From: a bacterium
GTDB lineage: Bacteria > Arandabacterota > Arandabacteria > Arandabacterales > JALGWA01
Direction: 5' to 3'
Assembly (NCBI GenBank): GCA_050125095.1
Contig: JASFEA010000001.1
Location: forward strand, 1,389-65,388
Length of the DNA stretch: 64,000 nucleotides
The translations under genes and the position numbers were made by a program. The notes below the pieces were generated by a model. The model saw only the letters and a list, made by a program, of their open reading frames with translations. It was not told the DNA's origin and did no database searches. Positions 8,399 through 50,577 of this stretch are shown one piece after another; the first letter of the stretch is position 1; each line of letters begins with the position of its first letter.

Positions 8399-8995
8399 AT
8401 GAAATACGTACTTGCGATTCTGCTGTTGCTCGCCCTCTCTTCGTCGGCGCAAGCCTTTAGTTCCATGGGAGGGGCCACCTACAACGTGTCATTCGCGCTG
8501 GGCGACACGCGGGAGTTCATAGACGCGGTGAGCTGGAGGGGCTGGAACCTCGAAGGCCGTTGGTTCCATAACGATAATCTCTCTTTCGGACTCTCCTGGC
8601 ACTGGACCACCCTTCACGAGCAGGAGACCGGCACGTGGCCCGTAGAGGGAGGTCATGTGACAGGCGGCCAGTTCAGGCGGATAAGCACATCGCCCTTCCT
8701 GGTGAATACGCACTGGCACTTCGTCAACACCCGCGACCGCTACCAGAAATACATACCCTATCTGGGAATGGGTCTTGGCGCTTACTGGATCGAGACCCGG
8801 CACGAGATAGGCGTCTTCGCATTTGAGGACCGCAACTGGCACTTCGGGCTCGCTCCCGAGGCCGGGATGTTCGTCAACCTGAAGTTCGAGACCTATCTGA
8901 TGGTAACGCTGAGATATAATTACGCATTCAAGTCGGGTAGCGCGGAGAGCATGCAGTACGTCGCGCTCATGGTGGGACTGGCTTATCTGGAGTAG
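8399..8995 (+). CDS. Small predicted outer-membrane beta-barrel protein (OmpW/OmpA-beta-barrel-like), paralog A
   Basis: Signal peptide LLLLALSSSAQA. About 180 aa of alternating beta-strand pattern. Shares the GDTREFI motif with the 17175 paralog. The C-terminal aromatic-rich strand is LMVGLAYLE. The start is 7 nt after the DUF4136-like gene. Confidence 0.55.
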   Translation: MKYVLAILLLLALSSSAQAFSSMGGATYNVSFALGDTREFIDAVSWRGWNLEGRWFHNDNLSFGLSWHWTTLHEQETGTWPVEGGHVTGGQFRRISTSPFLVNTHWHFVNTRDRYQKYIPYLGMGLGAYWIETRHEIGVFAFEDRNWHFGLAPEAGMFVNLKFETYLMVTLRYNYAFKSGSAESMQYVALMVGLAYLE

Positions 8996-9041
8996 GCGGC
9001 CTGAGGACTTGCGGTCCGGTCGGGCCGGGTGGGATAATGAA

Positions 9042-9063
9042 GGGGCGTGCTTCGGCACGCCCC
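9042..9063 (+). terminator. Stem-loop ggggcgtgc-TTCG-gcacgcccc downstream of the 8399-8995 gene
   Basis: Perfect 9-bp GC-rich stem with a TTCG tetraloop, 47 nt after the stop codon. No U-run follows, so this is a terminator-like or RNA-stability hairpin. Confidence 0.4.
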
Positions 9064-9116
9064 TCTGCCAGATGTGAGTTGACTCGAGCCCGCTTTTCGA
9101 ATACGCTGAGCGCCGG

Positions 9117-9470
9117 TTGGTATCTGAACCTCAGTCATCCTTCATCTGTGAGGTAACGTCTATGCGACGATCAGGTATAGTCTGCGGCCCCCTTGTCGTC
9201 TTTCTGGCGACAGGTATTCTCGTCGGCGCTCTCGCCGGGGACGTCCAGGCGCGCACGGAGACTGTCGGCGTTGTCAGCGATGGGCCGGTTTCGATGGCTG
9301 CTGTCACAACAATCATGGGAATGATACCGCTTCCGGGTGGCGCGTTCTCCGCCGCCATGGCTGTGACCATAATGGCGGGGTCTCGGCGTGGCCACGGTTC
9401 TGGTCCTGGTGGTCTTGCCGGTGCTCTATGCTGTAATCTTCAGGGTACCGGCGCGAGAGGCCTGGACGTA
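9117..9470 (+). pseudogene. Remnant of the C-terminus of an RND (AcrB/CzcA family) efflux permease, frameshifted
   Basis: Frame 0 encodes ...AAVTTIMGMIPLPGGAFSAAMAVTIMAG, then the +1 frame continues GLGVATVLVLVVLPVLYAVIFRV. Together these match the last TM helices of AcrB (LMTSLAFILGVMPL...GAGSGAQNAVGTGVMGG MVTATVLAIFFVPVFFVVV). The frame switches at the GGGG run near 9377. The rest of the roughly 1000-aa pump is absent. Confidence 0.5.
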
Positions 9471-9528
9471 AGCAGGCGAAGACGTCGGCTGCTTTAGTAC
9501 AGCGTGGAGTATTAGCAGGGGAGGCGTA

Positions 9529-10356
9529 TTGAGACTTACGGGCCCCGGCGGAATCCATCACTACGTGGAGCGATTCCTGCGCTCCAATTCAAGCAGATTC
9601 GCAGGAAAGACGGTCGTAGATATTCCGGCAGGGACGGGGCGTTCTTCGGACGTGTTACGGAGCCTGGGAGCCCGGGTTGAGGCCTTCGACCTCTTTCCGG
9701 AGTCGTTCGCGGTGGATGGCCTGGAATGCAGGAAGGCCGACCTATCGCGTGACATCCCTCTTATGAGCGGCGCGGCGGATTATGTGCTCTCTCAGGAAGG
9801 AGTCGAGCATATTCCCGACCAGGTCGGCATGTTCCGAGAGTTCAATCGCATTCTCAAGAAAGGCGGCGGTCTCTTAATCACAACTCCCAACTATTCCAAC
9901 CTGAGAATCAAGATCGGGCAGCTTCTTTCGGAAAGCGAATACGCGTATAAGAAGATGCCGCCCAATGAACTGGACTCGATCTGGGGGCACGGCGCCGAAT
10001 GTGGTGATGTCTATTATGGGCATGTGTTCCCTGTCGGTATACAGAAACTGCGACTGCTCGCGAGGGTGGCCGGTTTTGCGATCAAGAAGGTCCACCGTAC
10101 CCGGGTGAACGGCTCTTCACTTGCCCTGATGTTTCTTTTCTATCCCCTGATTCTGACGGTGAATTATCTCGCGTATCTGAGGGCGATCGCGAAGCGAAAG
10201 GAAATTCCAATCGAGCAAAAGAGAGAGGTGTACGGCGAGGTCCTGAGATATGGAATCGACCCGCGAATTCTCCTCGACGGCTATCTGTTTGTGGAGTTCG
10301 AGAAAGAACATGAGGTCTCCGAGGAATTCTCGCGCCTGAGGGACAGGGACGCATAG
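9529..10356 (+). CDS. Class I SAM-dependent methyltransferase
   Basis: Motif I VVDIPAGTGRSS, the acidic residue after beta-2 (EAFDL), and motif post-I/II ...NRILKKGGGLLITTPN. The ORF begins with a non-ATG or leucine codon in the track, so the start is uncertain. Confidence 0.65.
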   Translation: MRLTGPGGIHHYVERFLRSNSSRFAGKTVVDIPAGTGRSSDVLRSLGARVEAFDLFPESFAVDGLECRKADLSRDIPLMSGAADYVLSQEGVEHIPDQVGMFREFNRILKKGGGLLITTPNYSNLRIKIGQLLSESEYAYKKMPPNELDSIWGHGAECGDVYYGHVFPVGIQKLRLLARVAGFAIKKVHRTRVNGSSLALMFLFYPLILTVNYLAYLRAIAKRKEIPIEQKREVYGEVLRYGIDPRILLDGYLFVEFEKEHEVSEEFSRLRDRDA

Positions 10357-10365
10357 AGATATGTC

Positions 10366-10393
10366 TTGACGGGTTGTGGAGCGTCACTAGACT
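10366..10393 (+). promoter_or_regulatory. Sigma-70-like promoter candidate TTGACG-N16-TAGACT
   Basis: Located 44 nt upstream of the 10437 start. Follows the same TTGACR/TAGNNT pattern seen at four other intergenic sites in the window. Confidence 0.35.
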
Positions 10394-10436
10394 CTGAGAC
10401 ATAGATGTCGGATTTAAGACAGGGAGAGATACACAT

Positions 10437-11279
10437 ATGACAATCCGGAAGACTTCGCTAGTGCTGCTTGCTTTACTGGTCTGTTTCTGTCCCGCGCTGG
10501 CTGCTGATGACGGCGTGGCAGAGCTGCCCTGGGAGAAGGGGTCCGTGAACCTGGGCGCGTACATGGCCGACCTCAACAGCTCTTTTCGCCTGGGGCTCGA
10601 CAATGTGGGACTCGGTCTCATTCTCGATACTGAGAAGTTTCTCGGGATGAAGGCCAATGACTACGCCTTCCGCGTCGGGGGCGCATACCGTATGGGCGAG
10701 AGCATGCGGCATAAGTTCGAGTTCGTATGGTTCAGCTTCGACCGGCGCTCTGAGAAGGAGATCACTGAAGATATAGAGCTGCCCCCGGAGCTGGGCGGAG
10801 ACACGCTCTACGTGGGCACGACGATCACCAGCACCTTCAAGTTCGACATAATAAAGGCCAAGTACAAGTATTCGATTGTACTCGACAACCGGGTCGACAT
10901 GAATGTCGGGTTGGGCTTTTATGTAATGCCGGTGACGATAGGTCTCGGGAAGAAGGGTGAGGAGCTCAAGTCTCAGGACATCACCGCGCCGCTCCCGGTT
11001 TTCGGTCTTGGCGTCGATGTGATCCTCACGCCCCGCTGGTTGCTCAAACAGAACCTGGACATCTTCTTCCTTAAGATCGGCAATTTCAGGGGGTCCATAC
11101 TGAACGCCCAAATGGCGCTCGAATACTCCAGATGGAAACACTGGGGAGTGGGGGCGGGCGTCGACGGGCTGCAGCTCAAGGTAGAGGCAGACGGCGACGA
11201 CTACCCGCTTATGGATTTCGTCGGGTCCCTTCAATTCTCTTATTTCGGCGCCCAGCTGTATGTCAAGTTCCTGTATTGA
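10437..11279 (+). CDS. Predicted secreted/outer-membrane beta-barrel protein (hypothetical)
   Basis: Signal peptide LVLLALLVCFCPALAADDG. Beta-strand-rich composition. C-terminal LYVKFLY has terminal aromatic residues. Confidence 0.5.
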   Translation: MTIRKTSLVLLALLVCFCPALAADDGVAELPWEKGSVNLGAYMADLNSSFRLGLDNVGLGLILDTEKFLGMKANDYAFRVGGAYRMGESMRHKFEFVWFSFDRRSEKEITEDIELPPELGGDTLYVGTTITSTFKFDIIKAKYKYSIVLDNRVDMNVGLGFYVMPVTIGLGKKGEELKSQDITAPLPVFGLGVDVILTPRWLLKQNLDIFFLKIGNFRGSILNAQMALEYSRWKHWGVGAGVDGLQLKVEADGDDYPLMDFVGSLQFSYFGAQLYVKFLY

Positions 11280-11315
11280 TCTGGCAGGTTTCAGGTCTGC
11301 CGCTGTGACGCGCAT

Positions 11316-11344
11316 TTGACACGCGGACGCGGTCTGGATATATT
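11316..11344 (+). promoter_or_regulatory. Sigma-70-like promoter candidate TTGACA-N17-TATATT
   Basis: The spacing is optimal (17 nt). Located about 25 nt upstream of the 11369 start. Confidence 0.4.
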
Positions 11345-11368
11345 CTGCCAGGGGCACTCCTTTCCAAT

Positions 11369-12478
11369 ATGCGGAAGGTCGGTATGAAGAGAATCTTGCT
11401 GCTTGCCGTGTTCCCGATTGTTCTCGCCTTAACCGTTCCCGCCCGCACCGCTACTCCGGATGAAAACCTGGAGGAGGCCATCGATTACCTGGTGGAGTTC
11501 GTCCGGACTTCGGATGTCGTATTCATACGTAACGACAAGGAGCACAATCCGGAAGAGGCGGCCTCGCATATGCTCAAGAAATACAAGTACGCAAAGAGGA
11601 AGGTGAAGACCCCCGAGGATTTCATCAGGTACTGCGCCACCGAGAGCACGATGAGCGGGAAGCCCTACCGTGTGAGGCTTGAGGACGGCAGAACCATTAC
11701 GTCTGAGGAGTGGCTGCTCGCGGCGCTCGAAGACTACAGGAGAGCCGACGGGGGTGAGGGTTTCGTCTTCGAGATGAGGGAGTTCCGCAAGCAGTATGGC
11801 ACCTGTCCGGCGCCGCAGGAGGACTGCGCGTCGGTAGTGGTGCGCTACCCGGAAATAAGCGGGGCGGACGCGAATTCCGCCATGGGAGCGATCGCCCGCG
11901 ATATCATGGCGCGCCTGGTGGCTCCCGTGTATGAGGATACGGAGCCCGGCACTCTTGCGGAGCTGGCCGATACCTTCATTGGGGCCTACAAGAACATGCA
12001 GACCGATTTCCCGGACTACAGGCTGGGCTGGATGCTCGAAAGAGAGGCCTCGGTCGAGTTCACGTGTGACTCTCTTGTCTCCATCGCCTACACCGAGATG
12101 TCCTTTGCGGGGGGCGCCCATCCCAACTCCAGGAAGAGATTCGCCAACTACCGGATGTCGGACGGCTCGTTGATCGATCTTAAGGATATCCTGGTTGAAG
12201 GGTACCGGAAGCAACTCACGAGGGCGGCGGAGATGGCCTTCAGGGCGGACAGACAACTGGATGAAGACGACAGCCTCGAGGAGGCCGGCTTCTGGTTCGA
12301 GGGCGGCGAGTTTGATCTGAATGACAACTTCGGTATCGCTGCCGGCGGACTCGTTTTTCACTTCGGTTATTACGAGATCGCGCCCTATGCTATGGGGCCG
12401 ACGGAGATTGTCGTGCCTTACGATAAGATATCTTCATTTATACGGGCGGACGGGCTTCTAAAAGGAGTTGTCAGGTGA
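11369..12478 (+). CDS. Exported hypothetical protein with DUF3298-like (RsiV-type, GGAHP motif) C-terminal region
   Basis: Signal peptide ILLLAVFPIVLALTVPA. The C-terminal region contains ...YTEMSFAGGAHPNS..., which is reminiscent of DUF3298/DUF4163. The N-terminal domain is unassigned. Confidence 0.5.
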   Translation: MRKVGMKRILLLAVFPIVLALTVPARTATPDENLEEAIDYLVEFVRTSDVVFIRNDKEHNPEEAASHMLKKYKYAKRKVKTPEDFIRYCATESTMSGKPYRVRLEDGRTITSEEWLLAALEDYRRADGGEGFVFEMREFRKQYGTCPAPQEDCASVVVRYPEISGADANSAMGAIARDIMARLVAPVYEDTEPGTLAELADTFIGAYKNMQTDFPDYRLGWMLEREASVEFTCDSLVSIAYTEMSFAGGAHPNSRKRFANYRMSDGSLIDLKDILVEGYRKQLTRAAEMAFRADRQLDEDDSLEEAGFWFEGGEFDLNDNFGIAAGGLVFHFGYYEIAPYAMGPTEIVVPYDKISSFIRADGLLKGVVR

Positions 12479-14844
12479 AATCTATTATCACTGCTTTGAC
12501 GGTGGTGGTGGGCCTGGCCGGCCCGTCGACTGCATCGGGCGCGATAGAGTGGCCTCAGCAGATCGACACGGCCGAGGCCACTATTGTCATATACCAGCCC
12601 CAGCTGGAGTCATTTGAGGGGAACAAACTGTCCGCGCGGGCGGCCGTTTCGGTTAAGGGCCGCGAAGCCCAGGAGCCCGTCTTCGGGGCCGCCTGGGTGG
12701 ACGCCAGGGTATCGACAGACACCGATGAGAGGACAGTGCATCTGATATCGGCTGAAGTCACGGCGGTCAAGTTCCCCGAGGCGACGGACGAGCAGGTCGA
12801 GTGGTTCAAAGGGGTGGTGAAGGCGGAGATCGAGAGCTGGGGTCTGACGATGTCGCTTGACCAGCTCATAGCTGACCTAGACCTCACGGAGAAGGAGATA
12901 GCAGCCTCCGAGAACCTCAAAAACGATCCCCCCCGGGTCATTTACAGAACCGAGCCCGCGGTCCTGGTCCTGATCGACGGCGACCCGGTTCTACAGGATG
13001 TCGAGGAAGGCCTCAAGGCGGTCGTGAACACGTCATTCTTCATAGTCTACGACACGCAATCTGAGACGTATTATCTGACGGGAGGCGATTACTGGTACTC
13101 GACCAATAACCTCGAAGGTGAGTGGAGGCAGATCGATTCGCCGCCGAAGAAAATCAGCGACCTGGCCGCTGAGATGCAGATGATGTCAGAGGACGACATG
13201 GAGAAGGTCTCCGCGGCGATGGACAGCGCGGGTTTCTCGGCCGATGTCGCCCCTGAGATCGTCGTTGCCGACGAGCCCGCAGAGCTCATCGTCTCTGACG
13301 GAGCCGCAGATTTCGCGCCGATTGAGGGGACGGGTCTCCTCTATATGACCAACTCCGAGACGGACATCATAATGGTGATAGACAGCCAGAAGTACTACGT
13401 GCTTCTGGCCGGCCGCTGGTATGCGTCGGAAAAAATGTCGGGGGGTACCTGGGCTTTCGTTCCCCCGGACGATCTGCCGGAGGACTTTGCAAGCATCCCC
13501 GAGGACTCGGACATCGGAGAAGTGAGGGCGAGCGTCCCGGGCACGGTGGAGGCCAAGGAGGCCGTGCTCGAGAACCAGATCCCGCAGACGGCGGCGGTGC
13601 ACCGAGACAGCGCGGCGGTGGAGGTCACCTATGACGGAGATCCGGAGTTCGAGAAGTGCGGCGACTCGGGTGTTTATTATGCGAAGAATACCGACAAAGC
13701 CGTGCTCATGATTGACAGGACCTATTACTGCTGTGACGACGCGGTCTGGTTCGTATCCGGCTCGCCCGACGGACCTTACGAGGTAGCGGACGAAGTGCCC
13801 GATGAGATAAGGACGATGGGCCCGGAGTGCCCTCACTATAACGTCAAGTATGTCTATATATATGATTCCACGCCTGAAGTCGTCTATGTGGGTTACACGC
13901 CCGGATACACCTGCTCTTATGTGTACGCGGGGACAGTCGTCTACGGCACGGGATGGTGGTACCGGCCATGGTGGGGCACATATTATTATCCGAGGCCTGT
14001 GACCTGGGGGTTCGGAGTCCACTACAATCCCTATACCGGCTGGGGCTTTTCCTTCGGTATGAGCTTCGGGTGGGTGGGATGGCGTTGGGGTTGGTGGGGA
14101 CCGCATTATGGCGGTTGGTGGGGACCGGGGGGTTATCGATGGGGTTACAGGCACGGCTATCGGCACGGATATTATCATGGTTACCGCCATGGATACTATG
14201 CCGGACGACGCGCGGGCTATGTTCATGGTCGCGCCGACGCCGCGCTCCGTAATCATAATAACATTTACAGAAACAAGCCGGGAGTGAGGCCGGCGGACCG
14301 CCCCGTTACGCGGCCGTCCACCCGACCGTCGACGCAGCCATCGACCCGGCCGTCGACCCGGCCGTCCACGCAGCCATCGACGCGGCCGTCCACGCAGCCG
14401 TCCACCCGGCCGTCGACGCAGCCATCGACCCGGCCGTCGACGCAGCCATCGACGCGGCCGTCGACGCAGCCATCGACCCGGCCGTCGACAATGCCGGCAT
14501 CCCCTGCGGATGGTTCGACTATGGACAGGAGTAGACCTGCCCAGACTCAGAATAATGTGTTTGCCGACAAGAACGGCAATGTCTACAGAAAGACCGACAG
14601 CGGGTGGCAGTCGCGGGACGGGGGCAACTGGAACAGCCCCGACAGGTCCTCGCCGAGTACGAGGCAGAATTTCAATAGCAATAGATCAGATCTCAACCGG
14701 CAGTCCATGGCGCGCGACCGTGGGAATCAGAGGACCCAGACCTATAATAACTGGCAGAGCACCCAGCCCGCGGGCCGGCAACGGCCCCAGACCCAGCAGC
14801 GGCCGAGCGGCGCAAAGGGCGGGAGCAACCGCACGCGCAGGTGA
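12475..14844 (+). CDS. Large secreted hypothetical protein with a Trp/Gly/Tyr-rich segment, PST[RQ]P tandem repeats and an N/Q/R-rich tail
   Basis: Signal peptide VVVGLAGPSTASGA, a 789-codon ORF, and 4-nt overlap with the upstream gene. The composition is described under the findings. Confidence 0.6.
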   Translation: MKSIITALTVVVGLAGPSTASGAIEWPQQIDTAEATIVIYQPQLESFEGNKLSARAAVSVKGREAQEPVFGAAWVDARVSTDTDERTVHLISAEVTAVKFPEATDEQVEWFKGVVKAEIESWGLTMSLDQLIADLDLTEKEIAASENLKNDPPRVIYRTEPAVLVLIDGDPVLQDVEEGLKAVVNTSFFIVYDTQSETYYLTGGDYWYSTNNLEGEWRQIDSPPKKISDLAAEMQMMSEDDMEKVSAAMDSAGFSADVAPEIVVADEPAELIVSDGAADFAPIEGTGLLYMTNSETDIIMVIDSQKYYVLLAGRWYASEKMSGGTWAFVPPDDLPEDFASIPEDSDIGEVRASVPGTVEAKEAVLENQIPQTAAVHRDSAAVEVTYDGDPEFEKCGDSGVYYAKNTDKAVLMIDRTYYCCDDAVWFVSGSPDGPYEVADEVPDEIRTMGPECPHYNVKYVYIYDSTPEVVYVGYTPGYTCSYVYAGTVVYGTGWWYRPWWGTYYYPRPVTWGFGVHYNPYTGWGFSFGMSFGWVGWRWGWWGPHYGGWWGPGGYRWGYRHGYRHGYYHGYRHGYYAGRRAGYVHGRADAALRNHNNIYRNKPGVRPADRPVTRPSTRPSTQPSTRPSTRPSTQPSTRPSTQPSTRPSTQPSTRPSTQPSTRPSTQPSTRPSTMPASPADGSTMDRSRPAQTQNNVFADKNGNVYRKTDSGWQSRDGGNWNSPDRSSPSTRQNFNSNRSDLNRQSMARDRGNQRTQTYNNWQSTQPAGRQRPQTQQRPSGAKGGSNRTRR
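14305..14492 (+). repeat. In-frame tandem repeat, 15-nt unit (PSTRP/PSTQP) about 12 copies, equal to a 30-nt unit about 6 copies
   Basis: DNA ccgtcgac[cg]c[ag]gcc[ga]tc... repeats in phase with the ORF, giving RPSTRPSTQPSTRPSTRPSTQPST.... The opposite-strand track ORF 14306-14500 is its shadow. Confidence 0.85.
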
Positions 14845-14867
14845 AATGTCGGCGGGTCCTGAGGACG

Positions 14868-14920
14868 TTGCGCATTTTCAGACCTGACCCCGGCTGTTGT
14901 GCATTTTCAGACCTGACCCC
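14868..14920 (-). repeat. Two direct copies of a 24-nt element (minus-strand reading GGGGTCAGGTCTGAAAATGC[GA]CAA) with period 29
   Basis: Plus strand has TTGCGCATTTTCAGACCTGACCCC at 14868-14891 and TTGTGCATTTTCAGACCTGACCCC at 14897-14920. The same element recurs at 50473-50497, see findings. Confidence 0.7.
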
Positions 14921-14981
14921 TACGATGACCACGTCTATTCTCTCCTGCGGCCGGCGGGGAAGCCGGGGGGAGAACGACCGC

Positions 14982-16106
14982 CTATTTCCGGGGACGCGTA
15001 GCGACCCGGTAAGCGGCGAGCCCGGCGAAGATGGCCCCGATGAGTATCAGGCCCCTCCAGAAGGCGTGGTCCACCACCGCTCTTGTGCGGGCCTCGTAAT
15101 CTGCCGCGGCGCCGTCCACAGTCTTCTGGAGCTCGGCGAGCACCGGTTCCAGGTCGGTGCTCAGGCCCGCGAAAGCCTCAATCCTCTGGTTTCGGATTCC
15201 GTCGACAAGCGTCACTCCCAGCCTGTCGAATCCACCCGAGATGGACGAGTTGACGTCGTCTATTGACCCTGCAGTCCTTCCGAAACCCCCTGACAGGGAG
15301 TTGTCCATCCTGTCGAGGCTCCCGCGTAGCTCGGAGATGTCCCTGAAAGCGACCTGGATGTCCTCGACCTCCATGAGGCCCAGCGAGGCGAGCTCCAGCT
15401 GCCACTGAACCTGCCTGGGGATTATGTCGGTGTAAACGGTCAGGCGCATCCGCAGCTCCTGGACGCTCTCCTCCAGGGACTCGAAACCCGCGGTCCAGTC
15501 CGGCTTCTGGGCGACCATCACCCCGGCGACAAGGGGAATGACCGAGTCGCGAATGAAGAAGTGACTCTGAACGGGGTGATCCTGGGCCCAGCCATAGACG
15601 TCATGTCTTACCGCGGCAACCCCGTCATCGCCCAGTGCCAGCGCTGCAATGCCGGCGAGTTCCCTCTCCATGCCTTCGGCCGCCTCGAGGGCGATGGCCT
15701 GCCCCTCGCCGAAGGCCCCGGCTCCCGGGCCGGTGGCGAAGTAGTCCCTCATCTGTACGGTGAGCACCCACGTATCGATGAGCGCCGCATAGGGGTCCAG
15801 CCTGAACATGGCCTTGTGATAGGCCGGTATGGCATAGATCTTCCACAGCAGTGCCTGCTTATAGATCTCGGGGTCGTCCGTCCCCGCGTCTATCCTGTAG
15901 GCGGCCTCCTCGATCAGAACAGGATAGCGCACCGCGAATTCGTGCATCCTTATCCTGAGTTCGGCCGCCGACATGTCCCTGACACCGGCATGCTCCATGA
16001 GGGGCGTCATGCCGGGGGACGAAGAGCAGGCCGATACACAAAGCAAGGCGATTGCGGTCAAGGCCCTCACAGGGGCCTGCCCGTGGAGCCTCAAGGACGC
16101 ATTCAT
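14982..16106 (-). CDS. Hypothetical lipoprotein/membrane-associated protein
   Basis: The internal start MNASLRLHG... gives a lipoprotein-like signal (ALLCVSACSS). Contains repeated SxSGGF[GD]R segments and a C-terminal TM helix GLILIGAIFAGLAAY. The track ORF extends to 16181. Confidence 0.5.
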   Translation of the reverse strand: MNASLRLHGQAPVRALTAIALLCVSACSSSPGMTPLMEHAGVRDMSAAELRIRMHEFAVRYPVLIEEAAYRIDAGTDDPEIYKQALLWKIYAIPAYHKAMFRLDPYAALIDTWVLTVQMRDYFATGPGAGAFGEGQAIALEAAEGMERELAGIAALALGDDGVAAVRHDVYGWAQDHPVQSHFFIRDSVIPLVAGVMVAQKPDWTAGFESLEESVQELRMRLTVYTDIIPRQVQWQLELASLGLMEVEDIQVAFRDISELRGSLDRMDNSLSGGFGRTAGSIDDVNSSISGGFDRLGVTLVDGIRNQRIEAFAGLSTDLEPVLAELQKTVDGAAADYEARTRAVVDHAFWRGLILIGAIFAGLAAYRVATRPRK

Positions 16107-16493
16107 ATGTATCCTCCCGCGATATGCTCTTTGTTGCGCTTCCTGCTCTTTATAGCACAGAAGCCCGGAGTTTGCGAGCACCTAATGCCTCAGGCCAGCC
16201 ATCGCTCATCAAGGGGTCACCGCTTCCGTAGACAGGACGCCGTGGATCGGTGTATCGTTACCGGAAAGGGCTTGTCACATATGACCTACCGGGGCAAGGT
16301 GTATATACTGGCCTGGATGTTGTCATTGACGGCCCATCTATCGGCGTGAGCTTCTTCTGTTGAGGGCGGCGGGAGGGGCCGCCCGGCCGCGGAACGGAGC
16401 TGTTCCGGATTCGCTCGAGTCCGTCTTGGTTCTGGACGATTCTTTATGCATGGGTTAGTGTTAGGGTAAGTGGTGGTGAAGGAGGATGGCCAT

Positions 16494-17171
16494 ATGAGAA
16501 TCAGAGGGCTCAGAATTTGCGCCATCAGGGCCGCCGTCGGCCTGATTGCGGCTGCCCTGGGAAGCGTCATGCTCGCGTCGTGCACCCCCGAGGGCGCCTT
16601 CCAGAACGCCGAGGACTATGATGTCGTGGTGACGCTCTACGATAAGGAAACCGATTACGGCTCCATACGGACTTACCTTATGCCCGATTCGGTGGTGCAT
16701 TTCCAGGATCCCCAGAATCCGGGCCAGTCTCTCACGCATGACTACGATGACCTCATTCTCGAGAGGGTGGAGTATAATCTCCAGGCAATAGGCTACAGGA
16801 GGGAGAGTGACCCCGAGAACGAGGACCCCGACATAATCGTCATGGTCTCGGCCACTTCGTCCGACTGGCAGGCGTATAGTTACCCCTGGCTTCCCAGGTG
16901 GGGATGGTGGGGCCAGTGGCCTGGCGGAACCACAGACTGGTATTACCAGAGTCCGTACTACGGCAGCGGAGGCGTGTATACTTTCTCAACGGGCACGCTT
17001 CTTATCGACATGGGTGACATCAGGGAAGCGGATGAGGAAGAGGAGATGAAGGGGATCTGGACGGCCGCCATGAACGGCGTGCTTATGGAGGAAGCCTCGG
17101 GCGCTCCCCAGAGACTGGTCGACTTCATCGACCGGGCTTTCAGCCAGTCGCCATACCTAGGAGCGGACTGA
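16494..17171 (+). CDS. DUF4136-like lipoprotein, divergent paralog B
   Basis: SD AAGGAGGA lies 7 nt upstream of ATG 16494. Lipobox MLASCT. Contains DYDVVVTLYDKE ... IVMVSATSSDW ... PRWGWWGQWPGG ... TGTLLIDMGD. Colinear with the 7706-8392 gene. Confidence 0.65.
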   Translation: MRIRGLRICAIRAAVGLIAAALGSVMLASCTPEGAFQNAEDYDVVVTLYDKETDYGSIRTYLMPDSVVHFQDPQNPGQSLTHDYDDLILERVEYNLQAIGYRRESDPENEDPDIIVMVSATSSDWQAYSYPWLPRWGWWGQWPGGTTDWYYQSPYYGSGGVYTFSTGTLLIDMGDIREADEEEEMKGIWTAAMNGVLMEEASGAPQRLVDFIDRAFSQSPYLGAD

Positions 17172-17174
17172 TAG

Positions 17175-17780
17175 ATGAAGAACAACCTGCTGGCCGCACT
17201 GATTGCGTTGCTCATATTGATTTCCTCGGCACCTGCCGCCGTCGGCCAGGGATCGCTTACGAGCCTGTCCTGGGACCCGTCGTTTCCCACGGGCGATACC
17301 CGGGAGTTTATAGGCAAGTTCTCCTGGCGAAGTTTCGGTCTCGACGTCAAGGGGTTCATGACGCCGCGTTTTGCAATGGGCGCGTCTTTTGACTGGCGCC
17401 TATTCAACGAAGTGAGCAGCAAGACAATAGAGATCGAGGACGGCCATGTGAGCGGCACCCAGACACGCCGGCTGTATGCGATTCCCGTGCTTCTCACCAC
17501 GAGCTATTACTTCGGTTCATTCAGGGACTATCCCCGGTTTATACCCTATATCGGGGGCGGGGGAGGGGCGTACTATATAGAGGAGAAACTCGAAATCGGC
17601 GTCTATACGATGAAGCAGAAAGCCTGGAACTTCGGGCTCTGCGCCGAGATCGGGACGCTTTTCCAGTTCTCCTATGGATACGCCATGCTGCGGTTCAAGT
17701 ATCACTATGCATTCGAAAGTGAGGACGTCGCTCCGGTCTCGTGGTGGAGCGTGGGGATAGGCATAGTGGACACGCATTAG
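17175..17780 (+). CDS. Small predicted outer-membrane beta-barrel protein, paralog B
   Basis: Signal peptide ALLILISSAPAAVGQ. Shares the GDTREFI motif and is colinear with the 8399-8995 gene. The start is 4 nt after the DUF4136-like gene, the same cassette arrangement as paralog A. Confidence 0.55.
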   Translation: MKNNLLAALIALLILISSAPAAVGQGSLTSLSWDPSFPTGDTREFIGKFSWRSFGLDVKGFMTPRFAMGASFDWRLFNEVSSKTIEIEDGHVSGTQTRRLYAIPVLLTTSYYFGSFRDYPRFIPYIGGGGGAYYIEEKLEIGVYTMKQKAWNFGLCAEIGTLFQFSYGYAMLRFKYHYAFESEDVAPVSWWSVGIGIVDTH

Positions 17781-17868
17781 CCGGCTTCCGTATCAGGCAG
17801 CCGGAACCGGCCCTTCCGCAGGGATCACACAAAAGGCCTCTTCGCCTGCTTGGTCCCGAACATCCTCA

Positions 17869-18432
17869 TCACTGGGCCTGCCCCGTGGGCGGGTAGAGCG
17901 CCATGACTTCCCGGACGATGTCTTTGATCATCTGGTCGGCCTCCTCCGGCGTCAGATTCTCAAGCACCTTCTGCGCCGAACCCCTCCAGACCAGCACCTT
18001 GGTGTTGGCGTCCACGAAATCTATTATGAGCGTGCCCTCCTGGTATTCATAAGTGTCCACGTTCCTAGTATTCCATCCCCAGTAGCGCCCGGTTGAGGCG
18101 TAGGAGTAGCCCCAGTCGGTGACGTCCACTTTATCTTCGACGCCGACGTGGTAGAACACGACGATGTCCGGGCTGGACGTCGTGGCGGTGAAACCCTTGG
18201 CCGCCATCTCGCTGTCTACCGCGCTTCGGATGCGCATGTCGGTTATATCGCCGGCGGTCCTCAGGTGCTCGGGGATCTTGTCCGGCGGCAGGACTTCATC
18301 GAGCCAGGCATAGGTCCTGTATACCGAGAAGTCCGCGGAGGTATCGTAGTCGGCGTTTACGGCTGTCTGCTGCGAGCAGGTCAATGCCACGGCAGCGAGG
18401 CAGAATAGCGCGAGGCAGGCGGCGAGTTTCAT
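17869..18432 (-). CDS. DUF4136 family lipoprotein
   Basis: Lipobox AVALTCSQ. Contains DYDTSADFSVYRTYAW ... DIVVFYH ... GTLIIDFVD. Colinear with the 5423-5977 gene. Confidence 0.7.
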   Translation of the reverse strand: MKLAACLALFCLAAVALTCSQQTAVNADYDTSADFSVYRTYAWLDEVLPPDKIPEHLRTAGDITDMRIRSAVDSEMAAKGFTATTSSPDIVVFYHVGVEDKVDVTDWGYSYASTGRYWGWNTRNVDTYEYQEGTLIIDFVDANTKVLVWRGSAQKVLENLTPEEADQMIKDIVREVMALYPPTGQAQ

Positions 18433-18592
18433 GCAATCCTCCTTGGGTGAGCGAGCGTTTCCAGATTATAGGCGTGTCCTCCGGGGGTTGTCAATGCCGG
18501 GCTTGTGTCGCCGTTCTCCAGGCCACTTGCCGGTTGACAATGACGGGGATATGGTCGAGATTCCATATATTGAGGTCTTGAACGGGGGGATT

Positions 18593-19447
18593 ATGAGGGG
18601 TCCACGAGGTTCGGCACTCGCATCACTCGCGATTATTATGGCGCTGACAGCCGCATCCTGTGGAATGCGGAGGACGTACACCGAACCCGGCGGGCCGGTG
18701 TATGAAGGTGACTTTCGCTCCGAGACGGCGGAGTTCTCGGGAACCGCCAAAGTCGTCTCCTATAACGTGGCCCTGGCCGAGCGAATCGATCTGGCGATTG
18801 CTGAACTGCGCGGATTCCCCGAGCTCAGCGGCGCCGACATTATTCTGCTGCAGGAGATGGACCCTGAAGGCGTCTCGGCAATCGCGGAGAGCCTCGGCTG
18901 CGAATACGTTTACTACCCCTCGGTTGTCCATGCAAAACACGGCAAGGAATTCGGGACGGCCATACTCTCAAAGCTGCCGATCATATCCCACAGAAAGGTC
19001 GTGCTTCCATATGAGGATCCCGTCCGAAAGTCACGCAGGGCCGTCACGGTCGCGGAGGTTGCCGCCGGAGTCAACAGGGTACTTGTAGTCAGCAGTCATA
19101 CGGAAAGCGCCCTGATGAATATTGACACCAGGGTGGCGCAGGCCGACTCGCTCGTCAGGAGCCTCATGAGCGAACACCGCTTCGCCATAGTGGGGGGCGA
19201 TTTCAATACGGTGTCACGGGAAGCCCTGGATGCCCTTGACGCCATGTTCTACTGGGTGGGCTTCGAGCGCGCCACCGCCGGAGTGGGCGCCACCGCCAGG
19301 TGGGGTCCGCAGGGAATAGTCGAGCTGGAGCTGGATCATATCTATGTCAAGGGATTCGACGTCCTGGAGTCCGGCAAAGTCTGGGAAGCCGACGCCAGCG
19401 ACCACAAGCCCATATGGGCCGTGCTCGAACTGCGCGCTCCAGATTGA
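18593..19447 (+). CDS. Endonuclease/exonuclease/phosphatase (EEP) family lipoprotein
   Basis: Lipoprotein signal ...LTAASCG from ATG 18593. EEP motifs: VVSYNV, LQEM, GGDFN, SDHKPIWAVL. The track ORF extends upstream to 18431. Confidence 0.7.
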   Translation: MRGPRGSALASLAIIMALTAASCGMRRTYTEPGGPVYEGDFRSETAEFSGTAKVVSYNVALAERIDLAIAELRGFPELSGADIILLQEMDPEGVSAIAESLGCEYVYYPSVVHAKHGKEFGTAILSKLPIISHRKVVLPYEDPVRKSRRAVTVAEVAAGVNRVLVVSSHTESALMNIDTRVAQADSLVRSLMSEHRFAIVGGDFNTVSREALDALDAMFYWVGFERATAGVGATARWGPQGIVELELDHIYVKGFDVLESGKVWEADASDHKPIWAVLELRAPD

Positions 19448-19520
19448 TCACCCCGCATGCCGCCTGCGCCCGTCCTCTCCGGTTCGCTCCAGCGGGCCGC
19501 GCACCTGAGACATGCCTTTC

Positions 19521-19539
19521 ACCCGCCGGCCGGCGGCGG
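19521..19539. terminator. GC-rich hairpin cccgccgg-cc-ggcggcggg between convergent genes
   Basis: Inverted repeat in the 95-nt gap between the 18593-19447 gene (+) and the 19543-22611 gene (-). Candidate bidirectional terminator. No strong U-run. Confidence 0.35.
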
Positions 19540-19542
19540 GCC

Positions 19543-22500
19543 CTAGAGTGCCGTCTTGAGCCAGCGGCCCAGCCATTCCTTGAAGCCGCCGTACCTCGGC
19601 ATCAGGTCTTGAAGTTCCTCGATGCTGTTGACCCAGGTGGTCGTGGAGATCATGCCCAGAAAGTCAAGATAGGCCAGCATGGCCCCCCGCTGGCCCACGA
19701 CATAAAGCACTTCGGCATCCATGAACTTGCCGCGGTAGTTCTGGTTGTGTGAGCCCAGAGTGAGGTATATGACCATTCTCTCTATTTCCGCGGGCGTGTG
19801 CGCCTGGAAGAAGGCCGTCGTGACCCTGCCGGTGTCGTCAGACAGCTCGTCCCGGAGGTCTTCTGTGCTAACATACTCGTCCCTGCGGCTCGTCTGCTCC
19901 GCTCTGGCCAGGAAGTAGCTGAGTATAAGCTCACGCCAGCCCTCAACTCCGAGTATCCCGTCAAGGGCTTCCTGGGACACGAAGAACTGCGTTTTGAGAT
20001 GAAGCTTGGGCTTCCGGTTCTCGACGTCGGCCACGAGGTAGACCGGCTCGTAGCCCTGGGCGACCAGGCGGTCGACTAGCTCATTGAGGACCCCGCGCAC
20101 GGACGGCTGGAAGGGCATGAGGTCGAGCAGCCAGGGGTTCTTCTTGAGCCCCTCCTGGACGCCCTCCGCATGAGCGATCTGGTTGCCGACGTCGACGTCA
20201 AGGTTGTAAACGCCTGTCCTGAAAAGCCCCCCGGCATGAGCTATGTCCTCTGCCATCTCCTCCTGTATCACCACAAACTTGGTGAAGAGCTCATTGGCGC
20301 GTGACATCTGGGGGACTCCGCTCGAGGGGGCGTTCTCGAGCGAAGGCGCGATCACGAGCACCTTGCATCCCCGGAAGGCGGCCCCGACGAGCATCCCTCC
20401 CCAGAAGGGGCTGTTCCAGAGGGAGTCCGGTATGTACATATGCGAGCCGGCTGGCATGAGATTGTACAGCACGGCCTTTACGAGGTTGGCGTGCTTGGGA
20501 TGGAGGTAGCCCGTGGCGTTGTGTGCCTGCATGGCTTGCTGAGTCCATCCCCGGGCAACCAGGTCCCCGACCATGTCAGTGTAATTGTCGGGCCTCCGAA
20601 TGGGGCGGAGGCAGGGAGGAATCTCACCCGGCTTGAATCCCTGCGAAAGGAGGACCTCTCGCGCCGCATGCTTGGTATAAACGGCGGCGGGCCCTCGAAC
20701 CAGCAGCGCCCTGTCGTCCCAGGTGGGCCCGGAGTAATGCTCGCCCACTCCCATCCCGGTGAACATTGACTCGCCGCGGCCGGGGTCGCGTTCGGTGACG
20801 TCGTAGAAACTTATCTTCCTGTGGTCCCTCATCACGTTGTCGGGCGCAAGCGGGAAGTAGTCAAAGAGATGGGAGGCCCTGAACGAAAGGTCCGAGGGGT
20901 TGGTGATATTCACATGCACTTTTATCTTGTTATAGAGCCAGTCCTTGCCGTATATCCTGAGTCCATTCTGCAGCTCTTCCGATTCGGCCACGGCCTTGCG
21001 CAATTCATCCTGTAGACTGAGTATCTCTTCTTCCCACCCCTCAAAGCCCCCGGGGAGGCTCATCCTGTGCCTAAGCGGGTCCGCGAGGAGCTCGAGCCAG
21101 AGCGCGCCGTCATTGACGGCGTAATAGAACTCGTCGATTATGATGATATATGTAGGTATTTTGCCCGTCTTATCGAACTCCCTGACCTTGTCGATGAGGG
21201 CCCGCATATATCCTTCAGTGGTCATGGCGTAGCCGACGGTGTCCGGCGTGCCGGCCGCGTTCACGCCCTTGTAGTCGTGAATCCAGAGGACGTGATAGTC
21301 CTCCGCCGCGTGTATCATGCGGTGGAGCTCCCACTGGAACTGCTCATTGATGATATAGTGAATGTCATTGCCCGTGGTCATCTCGGACTCGAGGAACTTC
21401 TCGAGAATGGCGTCAATCTCGCTCTGGGTGTCGTGGTCCTCAATTGTGAAAACGTAGTGGAGCGGCAGCCAGACCACCCGGGGCGTCCGCCAGAGCTTGC
21501 GCTGCCGGGCCCTGCTCTCATCCATGATCTCGATAAGGCGGTGAAAGACGTATTCGGCCGCCCTCACTTGCTCCCCGGGGAGGCCGGATGCCTCAAGCAG
21601 GTAATCGTGGAAGGCTTCTTCCGCCTCTGCCCCCAGTCCAAGCAGAGTGTCATTGGCCTTCCACTGGCCCAGGAGCCGGTTATAGGGAAGCACGACCTCC
21701 TCTAAGAGTATCTCCCTCGCCCTTACCGCGAGAGCGCTTCCGGCCTCTTCGCTGCCTGCGGCCAGGGTGAAGGCATGAATGAGGTTCCTGTGGTAGAACC
21801 GTATCTCGGCTTCGAAGGTGTGCCCCCCGGGGAAGTCCTCGTCGGTGGCGTAGTATTTCTCGCGGGCCTGAGCCAGCGCCTTCCGGAATTCAACGATGTC
21901 GCCCTCGTCGGAGCCGCGCTTGCGGTCGAGGAAAGGAGACGTGAAGTAGGTGATTTCTTCGGCTCCTTCGGAGATGTTGGCGAGCGCTTCCGCCAGTTCG
22001 GCCGACGGCCGGTATGGCTTCTCGAATGTGCGCCCGGGTTCGGGCGGCAGCGTCACATGGGCCAGCCGCGGCCGAGTCCTGCCCATATACGGCTGGCGGA
22101 GAGGCGTGACTATGCCGAAGTTATAGGACCTCCCGCGGCCTCCCGAAACGATGTCAAGCCGGAAGTCGCCGCCGCGCTGTATGGGCCCGCCCCTCCACAT
22201 GGGGAGCTGTATGTTCCAGATGAATCTCAGCGTCTCCTCCCTGAAGGAATAGTCCGCGCCGATGCCCAGGAGAAACGTCTTTACCGTGAAAAAACCGCGA
22301 AGGCCCCCGTCGGCTTCGGATTCTATCGCGGCGAGGTAAGCCTCGCCCATGAGGCCTATGCCCATGTTGGGATTTCCCAGGTCGCGGTAAACGCCCAGAA
22401 GGACCTCGCCGCCCCCGCGGGATTCCTCCTCGCGCCGGTCCCACTTGAGCATGGCCCCGGCGTAGGGCTTGTACTTGGAATGGAATCCCATGGACTTGAT

Positions 22501-48358: not shown

Positions 48359-50446
48359 TTGAAGGAGTATAACACTGCTGACATTCGCAACGTGGTAACG
48401 GTGTCCCATGGAGGTGCAGGCAAGACTTCTCTTGCCGAATCATTGCTATTCGCCGGCAAGGCGACCTCCAGATTCGGCAAGGTCGATGACGGGAGCTCTG
48501 TGCTCGACTACGGCGAGGACGAGGCCGAAAGGAAAATCACCTTAAATCTCGCTGTCGCTCATATCGAGTATAAGAACACAAAGATCAACCTCATCGATAC
48601 GCCCGGCTACGCCGACTTCTACGGCGACACCAAGGCGGGGATCCGCGCGGCGGACGCGGCCCTGGTGCTGGTAAGGGCCGACGCGGGCATCGAAGTCGGC
48701 ACCGACAAGGTATGGGAGTTCACCGGGGAAGTCGGAATTCCCAGGCTCATAGTCATGAATCGCATGGACAAGGAGCACGCCGACTTCGACAAGGTGCTGG
48801 CCCAGCTGCAGGACCATTACGGGACCTCCGTTGCGCCGATGCATATACCGGTGGGCGCCGGTGATGGCTTCAGCGGCGTGGTCGACCTCCTCACAATGAA
48901 GTACTACAAGTACGAGCGCGGCAAGCCCGGAGCCGGGCTCATGCAGGACATCCCCGGCGACCTCAGCGACCGGGCGAAGTCCATGAGGGAGAAGCTCATA
49001 GAGAGCATAGCCGAGTCCAGCGACGAACTCCTTGAAGCTTATCTCGAAGGCAAGGACATACAGCAGGACGCCCTGGTCGGCGCGCTTCAGGCCGGCTTCA
49101 AGATGGGCAAGATCGTCCCCGTATTCTGTTCGGCGGCCGTTCACGGCATAGGCGCCCAGCAGATACTGGATGCCATTGCCGGCTTCTTTCCGTCGCCCCT
49201 GGATGCCGGCGAGTTCAAATGCACCAAGCCGGGATCCACTGAGGAGATTACGAGGAAGATCTCGGTCGACGACCCCTTCGCTGCGCTGGTCTTCAAGACC
49301 ATATCCGAGCCCCACCTGGGAGACATGTCCATATTCAAGGTATATAGCGGCGCCTTCAAGGAGGGCACCGAGGTCCAGAACTCGGTCAAGGGCTCTTCCG
49401 AGAAGGTCACCCAGCTCTACAGCCTGATGGGCAAGGAGAGGAGAGAGGTGAACAAGGTGGTGGCGGGCGACATCGGCGCCACGGTGAAGCTGAGGGACAC
49501 CTCGACCAACGATACGCTCTGCCAGAAGGGCAATCAGGTCATCATAGACCCCATCAAGTTCCCCAGGCCCGTCGTCAGGGAGGCGCTCTTCCCCAAGAAC
49601 AAGGGTGAAGAGGACAAGGTGTCGAGCGGAATGGCCAGGCTGCTCCAGGAGGACCCGACATTTACCATGGTCGTGGACCCCGAGATCAAGCAGACCATCG
49701 TCTCGGGCCTCGGCGAGCTCCACCTCGCGGTAATACTCGAAAGGCTCAAGAAGCGCTCGGGCGTTGAAGTATTACTCGAGAAGCCGCGGATTCCCTACAG
49801 GGAGACCATCAAGGGCAAAGCCGAGAAGCAGGGGAAGTACAAGAAACAAACCGGAGGCCGCGGGCAGTACGGCGACGTCTGGCTTCGCATAGAGCCCATG
49901 CCCAGGGGAGAGGGCTTCGAGTTCGCCGACGAGATTGTGGGCGGGGCGGTTCCCTCCAAATTCGTGCCGGCCGTGGAGAAGGGCGTCAAGGAGACCATGG
50001 AGAAGGGCGCCTACGCCGGATACAACGTCGTAGACGTCAAGGCCATAATATATGACGGGTCGTTCCACCCGGTAGACTCATCCGATATGGCTTTCAAGGT
50101 GGCTGCTTCCATGGCTTTCAAGAAGGCGTTTCTCGAAGCCAAGCCGATTCTCTTAGAGCCCATCATGAACATCACGGTCACGGTGCCCGAGGAGAACCTG
50201 GGCGACGTCATGGGCGACGTATCGAGCCGCAGGGGCAAGATCCAGGGTGTCGAAGGCAAAGGCAACCTCCAGGTCGTGAGGGCGTCGGTGCCGCTTGCGG
50301 AGCTCTACAAGTACTCCACCCAGCTCCGGTCGATGACTCAGGGCAGGGGCATGTACGAGAACGAGTTCTCTCATTATGAAGAGGTGCCCCACGAGATCGC
50401 CCAGAAGATAGCCGAAGAGCACCAGACCCAGGCGGCCGAGAAATAG
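48359..50446 (+). CDS. Elongation factor G paralog (EF-G-like translational GTPase) with His to Tyr substitution in the G3 motif
   Basis: Five-domain EF-G architecture (695 aa). G1 SHGGAGKTS, G2 RKITL and G4 NRMD are present, but G3 reads DTPGYADF (DNA acg ccc ggc tac gcc gac) instead of DTPGHVDF. TTG start preceded by GGGGGAAGGG. Confidence 0.75.
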   Translation: MKEYNTADIRNVVTVSHGGAGKTSLAESLLFAGKATSRFGKVDDGSSVLDYGEDEAERKITLNLAVAHIEYKNTKINLIDTPGYADFYGDTKAGIRAADAALVLVRADAGIEVGTDKVWEFTGEVGIPRLIVMNRMDKEHADFDKVLAQLQDHYGTSVAPMHIPVGAGDGFSGVVDLLTMKYYKYERGKPGAGLMQDIPGDLSDRAKSMREKLIESIAESSDELLEAYLEGKDIQQDALVGALQAGFKMGKIVPVFCSAAVHGIGAQQILDAIAGFFPSPLDAGEFKCTKPGSTEEITRKISVDDPFAALVFKTISEPHLGDMSIFKVYSGAFKEGTEVQNSVKGSSEKVTQLYSLMGKERREVNKVVAGDIGATVKLRDTSTNDTLCQKGNQVIIDPIKFPRPVVREALFPKNKGEEDKVSSGMARLLQEDPTFTMVVDPEIKQTIVSGLGELHLAVILERLKKRSGVEVLLEKPRIPYRETIKGKAEKQGKYKKQTGGRGQYGDVWLRIEPMPRGEGFEFADEIVGGAVPSKFVPAVEKGVKETMEKGAYAGYNVVDVKAIIYDGSFHPVDSSDMAFKVAASMAFKKAFLEAKPILLEPIMNITVTVPEENLGDVMGDVSSRRGKIQGVEGKGNLQVVRASVPLAELYKYSTQLRSMTQGRGMYENEFSHYEEVPHEIAQKIAEEHQTQAAEK

Positions 50447-50448
50447 CC

Positions 50449-50497
50449 GGGGTCAGGTCTGGGGTCAGGTCTGGGGTCAGGTCTTGAAATGCACAGG
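50449..50497 (+). repeat. 3 x 12-bp tandem GGGGTCAGGTCT followed by TGAAATGCACA; this is the third copy of the dispersed element at 14868-14920
   Basis: Begins 2 nt after the EF-G-like stop codon. The last unit plus its tail (GGGGTCAGGTCTTGAAATGCACA) matches the minus-strand copies at 14.9 kb with one position shifted. Confidence 0.7.
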
Positions 50498-50577
50498 CCC
50501 CGGATGCACAGCCAAACATATGCCCCTTCCGGGCTCGGAGCCCGGGAGGGGTAGTTTTATCAGCCGAAGGACTCCAC

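Follow-up and report, generated by a model that had tools for sequence, protein, structure and literature searches.

A dispersed 24-nt intergenic repeat, probably of the TIRtron terminal-repeat class, at two loci of a 64-kb bacterial genome fragment

Repeat copies at two loci of the window

Two distant loci of the window (the whole 64-kb stretch of DNA that was analysed) carry copies of one short repeat. The first lies in a 137-nt gap between two converging genes, a 789-aa gene on the plus strand (12475-14844) and a 399-aa gene on the minus strand (14982-16181; GC3 0.78). Neither has a Pfam hit, and both show the GC3 signature of real genes. Within the gap, at 14863-14920 on the minus strand, is a pair of 29-nt head-to-tail units, which confirms the two direct copies of period 29 given in a preliminary description of this DNA. 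Unit 1 (14892-14920, minus strand) is composed of a 24-nt TIR-type repeat, GGGGTCAGGTCTGAAAATGCACAA, and the 5-nt spacer CAGCC; unit 2 (GGGGTCAGGTCTGAAAATGCGCAACGTCC, 14863-14891, minus strand) is unlike it at 3 of 29 positions. The 23-nt sequences that recur with the 29-nt period are GGGGTCAGGTCTGAAAATGCACA (14898-14920, minus strand) and GGGGTCAGGTCTGAAAATGCGCA (14869-14891, minus strand). These copies had been placed 60 nt downstream of the minus-strand gene; the side is correct, but the measured distance from the stop at 14982 is 61 nt. They also begin 24 nt past the stop of the plus-strand gene at 14844. The copy at 14920 is preceded by a GTAG that is peculiar to this locus. Just upstream of the repeat locus, at 14308-14489, the 789-aa ORF contains an in-frame 12/24-bp tandem (7.5 copies of a 24-mer, 87% matches) that encodes a repetitive Ala/Val/Asp-rich stretch.

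The second locus is the 3' end of an EF-G-like gene (48359-50446, plus strand), whose product has its closest named relatives in Candidatus Eisenbacteria (~69% identity); the organism probably belongs to, or is close to, that group as an uncultured lineage. Tandem Repeats Finder identified 3.0 perfect copies of the 12-mer GGGGTCAGGTCT at 50449-50484 (plus strand), bearing out an earlier reading of a 3 x 12-bp tandem that starts 2 nt past the stop at 50446. Two of these (50449-50472) are extra repeats of the element's initial 12 nt, and the third opens a full 24-nt unit, GGGGTCAGGTCTTGAAATGCACAG (50473-50496), which is an exact match to the cross-phylum 20-nt core described below. The tail of this unit, ATGCACAG (50489-50496), can be read a second time at 50504-50511 (plus strand); it is a partial local duplication, and similar partial units are present in relatives. 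A canonical intrinsic terminator of the EF-G-like gene lies 25 nt downstream of the repeat, with a 15-bp stem at 50521-50553 followed by GTTTTAT (whole feature 50521-50560, plus strand; fold z = -3.23 with the stretch included). Thus, the statement that no U-run follows the repeat holds for the repeat itself, but a terminator does follow this copy at a short distance. A terminator scan found nothing inside either window repeat; it did find the stem at 50521-50553, outside the repeat.

The recurrence of the element at two distant loci is real when compared with shuffled sequence. The 12-mer GGGGTCAGGTCT occurs five times in the window versus 0.41 expected, a count reached in 0 of 100 shuffles, and the 23-mer (allowing up to 3 mismatches) occurs three times versus 0.00 expected. 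No additional copies were found elsewhere in the 64-kb window. All window copies start with GGGGTCAG, which has the form GGGGWSAS. The identity between loci was initially put at about 22 of 23 positions. The ungapped value is 21 of 23, and 22 of 23 is reached only with a 1-nt shift (TCT-T-GAAA-TGC versus TCT-GAAA-A-TGC). Folding of the window copies is no better than that of shuffled sequence (z = +0.71, -0.14 and -0.25), in agreement with the initial view that the element is neither a classical REP nor a terminator. Inverted pairs (the REPIN form) were not found in the window, where only direct tandems occur, and a gathering-threshold Rfam scan of the whole window returned no family. A full-text literature search with the repeat sequence gave a single irrelevant match, and the exact 20-mer is absent from viral contigs.

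A repeat family that flanks Y1 HUH transposase genes

The motif was sought in related genomes, as the preliminary description had proposed, and it is not confined to this genome: its core, GGGGTCAGGTCTTGAAATGC, occurs in isolates as well as MAGs from many phyla. A scan with the pattern GGGGTCAGGTCTNNAAATGC, using one genome per species, gave at least 89 loci; about 17 chance matches are estimated for 18 specified bases in the scanned collection, and some single matches may be chance. At least 59 exact matches come from one MAG, CAZSBE01, and the ends of several CAZSBE01 contigs fall in the repeat, as is typical of a repeat that interrupts assembly. The other listed matches include Methylomirabilota, Acidobacteriota, Desulfobacterota-type MAGs, Syntrophomonadaceae, Aminicenantes and Eisenbacteria. 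Among the listed matches, isolate carriers are Thiococcus pfennigii, Thioalkalicoccus limnaeus, Denitromonas ohlonensis and a Zoogloeaceae strain. In four Thiococcus and Thioalkalicoccus loci (L035, L038, L056 and L061) the repeat adjoins a ~600-bp locally repetitive region that is open in several frames and shows 75-96% identity within and between these Chromatiaceae genomes.

Once oriented, the loci show four arrangements: units standing alone, doublets repeated head to tail every 24-36 nt, inverted pairs whose outer ends are GGGG, and partial duplications. The inverted pairs include a 41-nt perfect palindrome (L034), 75-nt elements in Methylomirabilota and elements of ~140 nt in CAZSBE01, and such pairs in relatives form hairpins (z = -10.4 for L034; z = -7.9 for the 46-nt pair of L101). 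Partial duplications are frequent and have the form X-GGGGTCA-X-GGGGTCAGG..., taking in a few bases of unique flank. We considered and dropped a division into "left-arm" (TTGAAATGC) and "right-arm" (TGAAAATGC) variants, as pairs occur in every combination. The similarity between solo copies ends after 24-27 nt. In a profile of 101 copies, the information content is at background level on both sides of positions 1-24. Because the pattern used to select the copies dictated positions 1-12 and 19-23, the profile is informative only for the other positions and for the flanks. The same 101 copies carry no information at positions -4 to -1, where a conserved tetranucleotide tag (GTAG or CGTC) was looked for. 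No target-site duplication was found at 39 of 43 inverted pairs; the other four have 2-3 nt, about the chance expectation.

Inspection of inverted copies ~1 kb apart revealed an associated gene. The repeat, or a variant that co-varies with the protein, flanks a gene for a ~285-aa Y1 HUH transposase at 7 of 7 loci from six lineages. The flanking copies are inverted, with GGGG outward; L090/L091 is an exception on the downstream side. At L070 the gene (a 287-aa ORF) is preceded by a tandem pair of copies and followed by one inverted copy, and at L092 (protein P0005, 70% identical to the L070 ORF) there are likewise an upstream doublet and a downstream inverted copy. L090/L091 (P0002, 79%) has an upstream doublet of period 30, and a downstream inverted copy was not detected beside the gene. 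In an Acidobacteriota MAG (L024), a 49%-identical protein has one inverted copy on each side. More distant genes are bordered by other variants: GGGGTCACATCTTGA in Sulfuricella (L093 and L094; P0074, 49%), GGGGTCAGGTCTTGCAATGC in Nitrospirae (L095/L096; P0082, 49%), where one more dispersed copy has the same variant, and 26-nt inverted arms AGGGTCAGGCCTTGCC... on a Legionella adelaidensis plasmid (L117; 39%). The repeat variant thus follows the protein lineage. Such genes are bordered by one shared 20-nt core, its GGGG pointing outward, in lineages that are unrelated. The initial suggestion of a small mobile mini-repeat is supported to this extent, as a dispersed family flanks the Y1 tyrosine-transposase gene in every lineage examined.

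The L070 ORF matches Pfam Y1_Tnp (E = 9.6e-11) and HTH_23 (residues 250-283). It scores 84 bits against NCBIfam NF047646 (REP_Tyr_transpos, the "REP-associated tyrosine transposase" equivalog; cut-off 80). The sole PDB match is E. coli TnpA_REP (4ER8), with which the HUH motif (HYH) and the catalytic Y-x3-NPV align. Homologues number at least 7,971 at E <= 1e-20 and are mostly of ~285 aa. They are seldom plasmid-borne (25 of 72,556 records; identity below 60% throughout, with 39% the best listed). The gene order around the transposase gene is common to L070, L090 and L118, with 68-77% nucleotide identity, indicating a single-copy gene passed on vertically within that group. The Sulfuricella MAG contig JAQTMN010000004.1 (39513-50720) carries two identical transposase genes 4.3 kb apart (L093/L094), each bordered by GGGGTCACATCTTGA; the gene is duplicated here versus the single syntenic copy elsewhere. 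We did not identify a transposase gene in the window (tblastn, E < 1e-3), and the window lineage's own transposase gene was sought and not found.

The GGGG start and the MITE-like inverted pairs of 41-230 nt could also suggest a solo terminal repeat or MITE remnant of a DDE transposon, with either a Tn3-like GGGG end or a multi-site end like those of Tn7 and Tn402. There is, moreover, what we take to be a partial resemblance of the repeat to Tn3-family and TnsB-site sequences. We regard this origin as exceedingly improbable. The only gene consistently flanked encodes a Y1 HUH enzyme, the great majority of the inverted pairs are free of target-site duplications, no recurrent DDE transposase occurs near the repeat in the 89 listed loci, and the conserved stretch is 24-27 nt versus the 38 nt of Tn3 ends. 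The individual candidates (Tn3-family GGGG ends, Tn7 TnsB and Tn402 TniA multi-site ends) were dropped because the flanked gene is Y1 and target duplications are lacking. A sigma-54 promoter, for which the GG-to-GC spacing is off by one, was dropped once these two facts were established. A search for a recurrent neighbour by clustering ORFs of at least 90 aa from the 89 listed loci returned only ABC-transporter ATPases and the Chromatiaceae repetitive region, and revealed no association.

Placement relative to genes and turnover between strains

To place the copies, genes were called with a simple GC3-based caller, which reproduces the JGI calls for the window region. Of 181 distinct copies, 147 (81%) lie between genes, 17 overlap the end of a gene and a further 17 fall nominally within ORFs, several of these last being over-extended start calls. 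The surrounding loci are 87% coding (13% non-coding). The repeat is frequent, but it is not scattered at random with genes included, the pattern that the preliminary description had named as counting against its view. The preliminary description saw the window copies in sense orientation just past stop codons, and this does not extend to the family as a rule: among the 147 intergenic copies, the GGGG side faces a sense stop in 64 and a divergent start in 74. Stop proximity is nevertheless common, as 16 of the 64 sense copies begin no more than 7 nt from the stop. Some copies supply the stop codon itself. In these the upstream gene enters the repeat and ends at its TGA or TAA (GGG GTC AGG TCT TGA, giving a ...GVRS C-terminus); examples are at L070 (4451-4470 and 7093-7112), L006 (2249-2268), L022 (2084-2103), L002 (4868-4887) and L069 (3539-3558).

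The copies close to stops, the position of both window loci downstream of stops and the location of the 50.4-kb copy within the EF-G transcript, upstream of the terminator, could be accommodated by an element that acts in RNA, as a processing or stability site in 3'-UTRs or as a site for an RNA-binding protein. We found nothing in support of such a role and regard it as very improbable. The window copies have no structure above that of shuffled controls and no Rfam match, and roughly every second copy lies antisense to the neighbouring gene or upstream of it. The same sequence is also found inverted on both sides of the transposase gene, which points to a signal at the DNA level.

A different pattern is seen beyond the GGGG end. 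An outward sigma-70-like promoter (TTGACn-N17-TAnnnT) starts 4-40 nt past this end in 18 of 95 copies, versus 3 of 95 at the opposite end, 0 of 95 in the inward-facing direction and 0.24 expected in shuffles. Every one of these promoters has a different sequence, often with a G-rich spacer, and the adjacency to -35 boxes is specific to orientation. The loci concerned include L004, L011, L026, L027, L032, L036 and L041, and further L044, L055, L066, L085, L108, L109 and L112. A recurrent upstream GTCAAGC, considered at one stage as part of the element, turned out to consist of -35 boxes that belong to unrelated promoters on the opposite strand.

Comparison with close relatives shows how the repeat changes in place. 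A metagenome scan with the window's own variant recovered L100, from the 201,817-bp contig Ga0180438_10000077 (JGI metagenome 3300017971), which is 96.9% identical to window positions 8541-21514. At the 14.8-kb site the flanks are identical over ~100 nt, but the arrangement of the repeat differs. In the relative a single full unit follows a 15-nt junction duplication (CATCGTAGGGGTCAG twice), and tandem unit 2 is absent; in the window there are two full units of 29 nt, and the junction duplication is absent. The 3/29 differences in the window's extra unit are more than expected from recent slippage between strains this similar, and hint that the unit was copied in from another site or arose by gene conversion.

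The EF-G site tells a similar story over a greater distance. It holds three 12-nt units in the window and two in the same relative (L113; EF-G 99% identical to that of the window); in both, a full unit begins with the last of them. At both window loci, the differences from this relative are confined to the repeat. L114/L115 (EF-G 88%) have two full units and one partial unit. L116 (EF-G 86%) has instead a 198-nt inverted pair of a diverged repeat, GGGGTCAGGCCGGAAA, that overlaps the TAG stop; the pair spans L116 4588-4785, both of its ends are GGGGTCAGGCCGGAAA, and its first G is shared with the TAG. The diverged variant at this position indicates that the site follows the lineage's own repeat variant. 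As the site is occupied in four lineages with differing tandem structure, the positions are old or repeatedly reused, and the internal structure changes quickly. One promoter-proximal site (L108 2511 and L109 5504-5577, with identical upstream ATAATATGGGAATTATGTTGACA) has two versus three tandem units in two metagenomes. The copy number of the repeat changes unusually fast.

The placement and persistence of the copies could be read as the result of host exaptation, with the repeat, kept by selection and not by continuing mobility, serving mainly as a binding site for a protein (the transposase HTH or another factor) and acting on nearby promoters or gene ends. This is compatible with a TIRtron origin. 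The excess of outward promoters past the GGGG end is consistent with it, as are the occupation of the EF-G 3' site down to 86% protein identity, the perfect conservation of solo units over exactly 24 nt, and the single-copy, syntenic gene, which resembles domesticated RAYTs (PMC5581495). However, copies lie beside stops about as often as starts, with inconsistent orientation, and neither window locus has a promoter-like site. The variation in tandem number between near-identical strains is unlike a tuned operator, and no regulated gene set is evident among the neighbours. We consider selection for such a role possible but unlikely.

A further reading, which we put forward as doubtful, is that the copied unit is the bare 24-nt half-site, and that the Y1 HUH + HTH enzyme places units beside existing ones or at gene boundaries. 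Three observations fit this: the window's extra unit differs from its neighbour even though the flank is identical to that of the relative, the repeat at the EF-G site follows each lineage's own variant, and the GGGG end abuts promoter -35 boxes in an orientation-specific manner. If true, the repeat would be among the smallest mobile DNA units known, and taken together the three observations would point to sites being renewed actively and in a targeted way, with a possible function for the host.

Interpretation and comparison with known systems

We conclude, with a probability of about 0.85, that the window element is a non-autonomous copy of a TIRtron terminal repeat, that is, of the inverted 24-27-nt repeats starting with GGGGWSAS that surround a Y1 HUH gene. 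RAYT-like genes flanked by terminal inverted repeats rather than REPs have been named TIRYT, and the whole units TIRtrons, by Di Nocera, De Gregorio and Rocco (2013; PMC3733652). There, the repeats are described as sharing the GGGGWSAS motif and as forming "moderately abundant" families of single, dimeric and grouped copies (PMC3733652). According to Quentin et al. (2018; PMC6006769), most TIRYTs belong to TnpA_REP subclass 2.1, the largest subclass, with a C-terminal HTH or DnaA_C-like domain. The same authors report that REP-like sequences were not found beside subclass 2.1 genes (PMC6006769). In our literature search the name TIRYT was confined to PMC3733652 and PMC6006769, and no published TIRYT biochemistry was found.

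TIRYT, the TIRtron transposase, is the equivalent of TnpA_REP subclass 2.1 and goes under the annotation RayT; its C terminus carries a helix-turn-helix. Published TIRtrons probably correspond to this subclass. The published TIRtron description is matched by the repeat (GGGGTCAG...), by the architecture of the protein and by the arrangement in the genome, and thus we assign the element to the TIRYT-associated repeat family. The window repeat is an ordinary member of this known and little-studied class.

Under the TIRtron interpretation, a transposase encoded elsewhere in the genome would recognise the repeat, either through the HTH on duplex DNA or through the HUH core on single-stranded or hairpin DNA. 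The HTH domain is the obvious candidate for duplex recognition of bare 24-nt units. By analogy with IS608 TnpA and E. coli TnpA_REP, the enzyme may nick single-stranded DNA at the GGGG boundary, forming a 5'-phosphotyrosine link, and may rejoin the strands without target duplication. Repeated nicking and rejoining, or replication slippage at a bound or nicked site, could generate the variable tandem duplications, all of which include GGGGTCAG.

Mobilisation of the repeat by the transposase would be in keeping with the strain-level rearrangement, which supports it indirectly. Some findings count against the TIRtron interpretation. A transposase gene was found neither in the window nor for its lineage, an orthologous empty site was not found, and folding shows no hairpin in a single 24-nt unit. 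The biochemically studied relatives, TnpA_REP and IS608 TnpA, recognise hairpins. The change in copy number of the 12-nt tandem, moreover, could be plain replication slippage that needs no transposase. In the window, the copies are unable to fold into hairpins, and any effect they have on the genes around them is probably small or nil.

The TIRYT-type Y1 transposases form a very large family (the at least 7,971 homologues at E <= 1e-20 noted above) that is almost unstudied. The present work contributes a sharply bounded 24-nt candidate substrate with a core conserved across phyla, seen as solo units, tandems and hairpin pairs, and natural pairs of strains that differ at the repeat only. How an enzyme family that recognises hairpins handles a non-palindromic site can thereby be put to the test. 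There is also a modest lesson for annotation, as such repeats break assemblies and can give upstream genes their stop codons.

Several known systems resemble the one described here in part. Like the DDE MITEs (Correia/NEMIS, RUP, ERIC and Nezha), the repeat is short, non-coding, bounded by inverted repeats and intergenic, often beside gene ends. Those elements, however, have target-site duplications and match the ends of DDE insertion sequences, neither of which is seen here. The IS200/IS605 family (IS608, ISDra2) shares the Y1 HUH catalytic family and the lack of target-site duplication. In contrast to this system, its own ends are sub-terminal hairpins rather than inverted repeats and its elements are multi-copy and move as whole units, whereas no fixed target tetranucleotide is visible beside the repeat here.

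The REP/REPIN-RAYT systems (E. coli TnpA_REP, 4ER8; Pseudomonas REPINs) are closer. They have a homologous transposase, a single-copy, syntenic gene flanked by repeats, and intergenic repeats whose inverted doublets fold into long imperfect hairpins. They differ in that the single unit here is no palindrome and has no conserved GTAG or CGTC tag, the protein here is ~120 aa longer and carries an HTH domain, and solo and head-to-tail units are common here.

The TIRtrons share with the present system a Y1 HUH protein with a C-terminal HTH, a gene placed between inverted repeats that start with GGGGWSAS (here GGGGTCAG), and a repeat scattered as singles, dimers and clusters. The GGGGTCAG-anchored variable tandem duplications, polymorphic between near-identical strains here, are unmentioned for TIRtrons in the available portions of PMC3733652 and PMC6006769. 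TIRtrons are described there in few isolates, whereas here one 20-nt core extends across many phyla, with at least 59 copies in one MAG.
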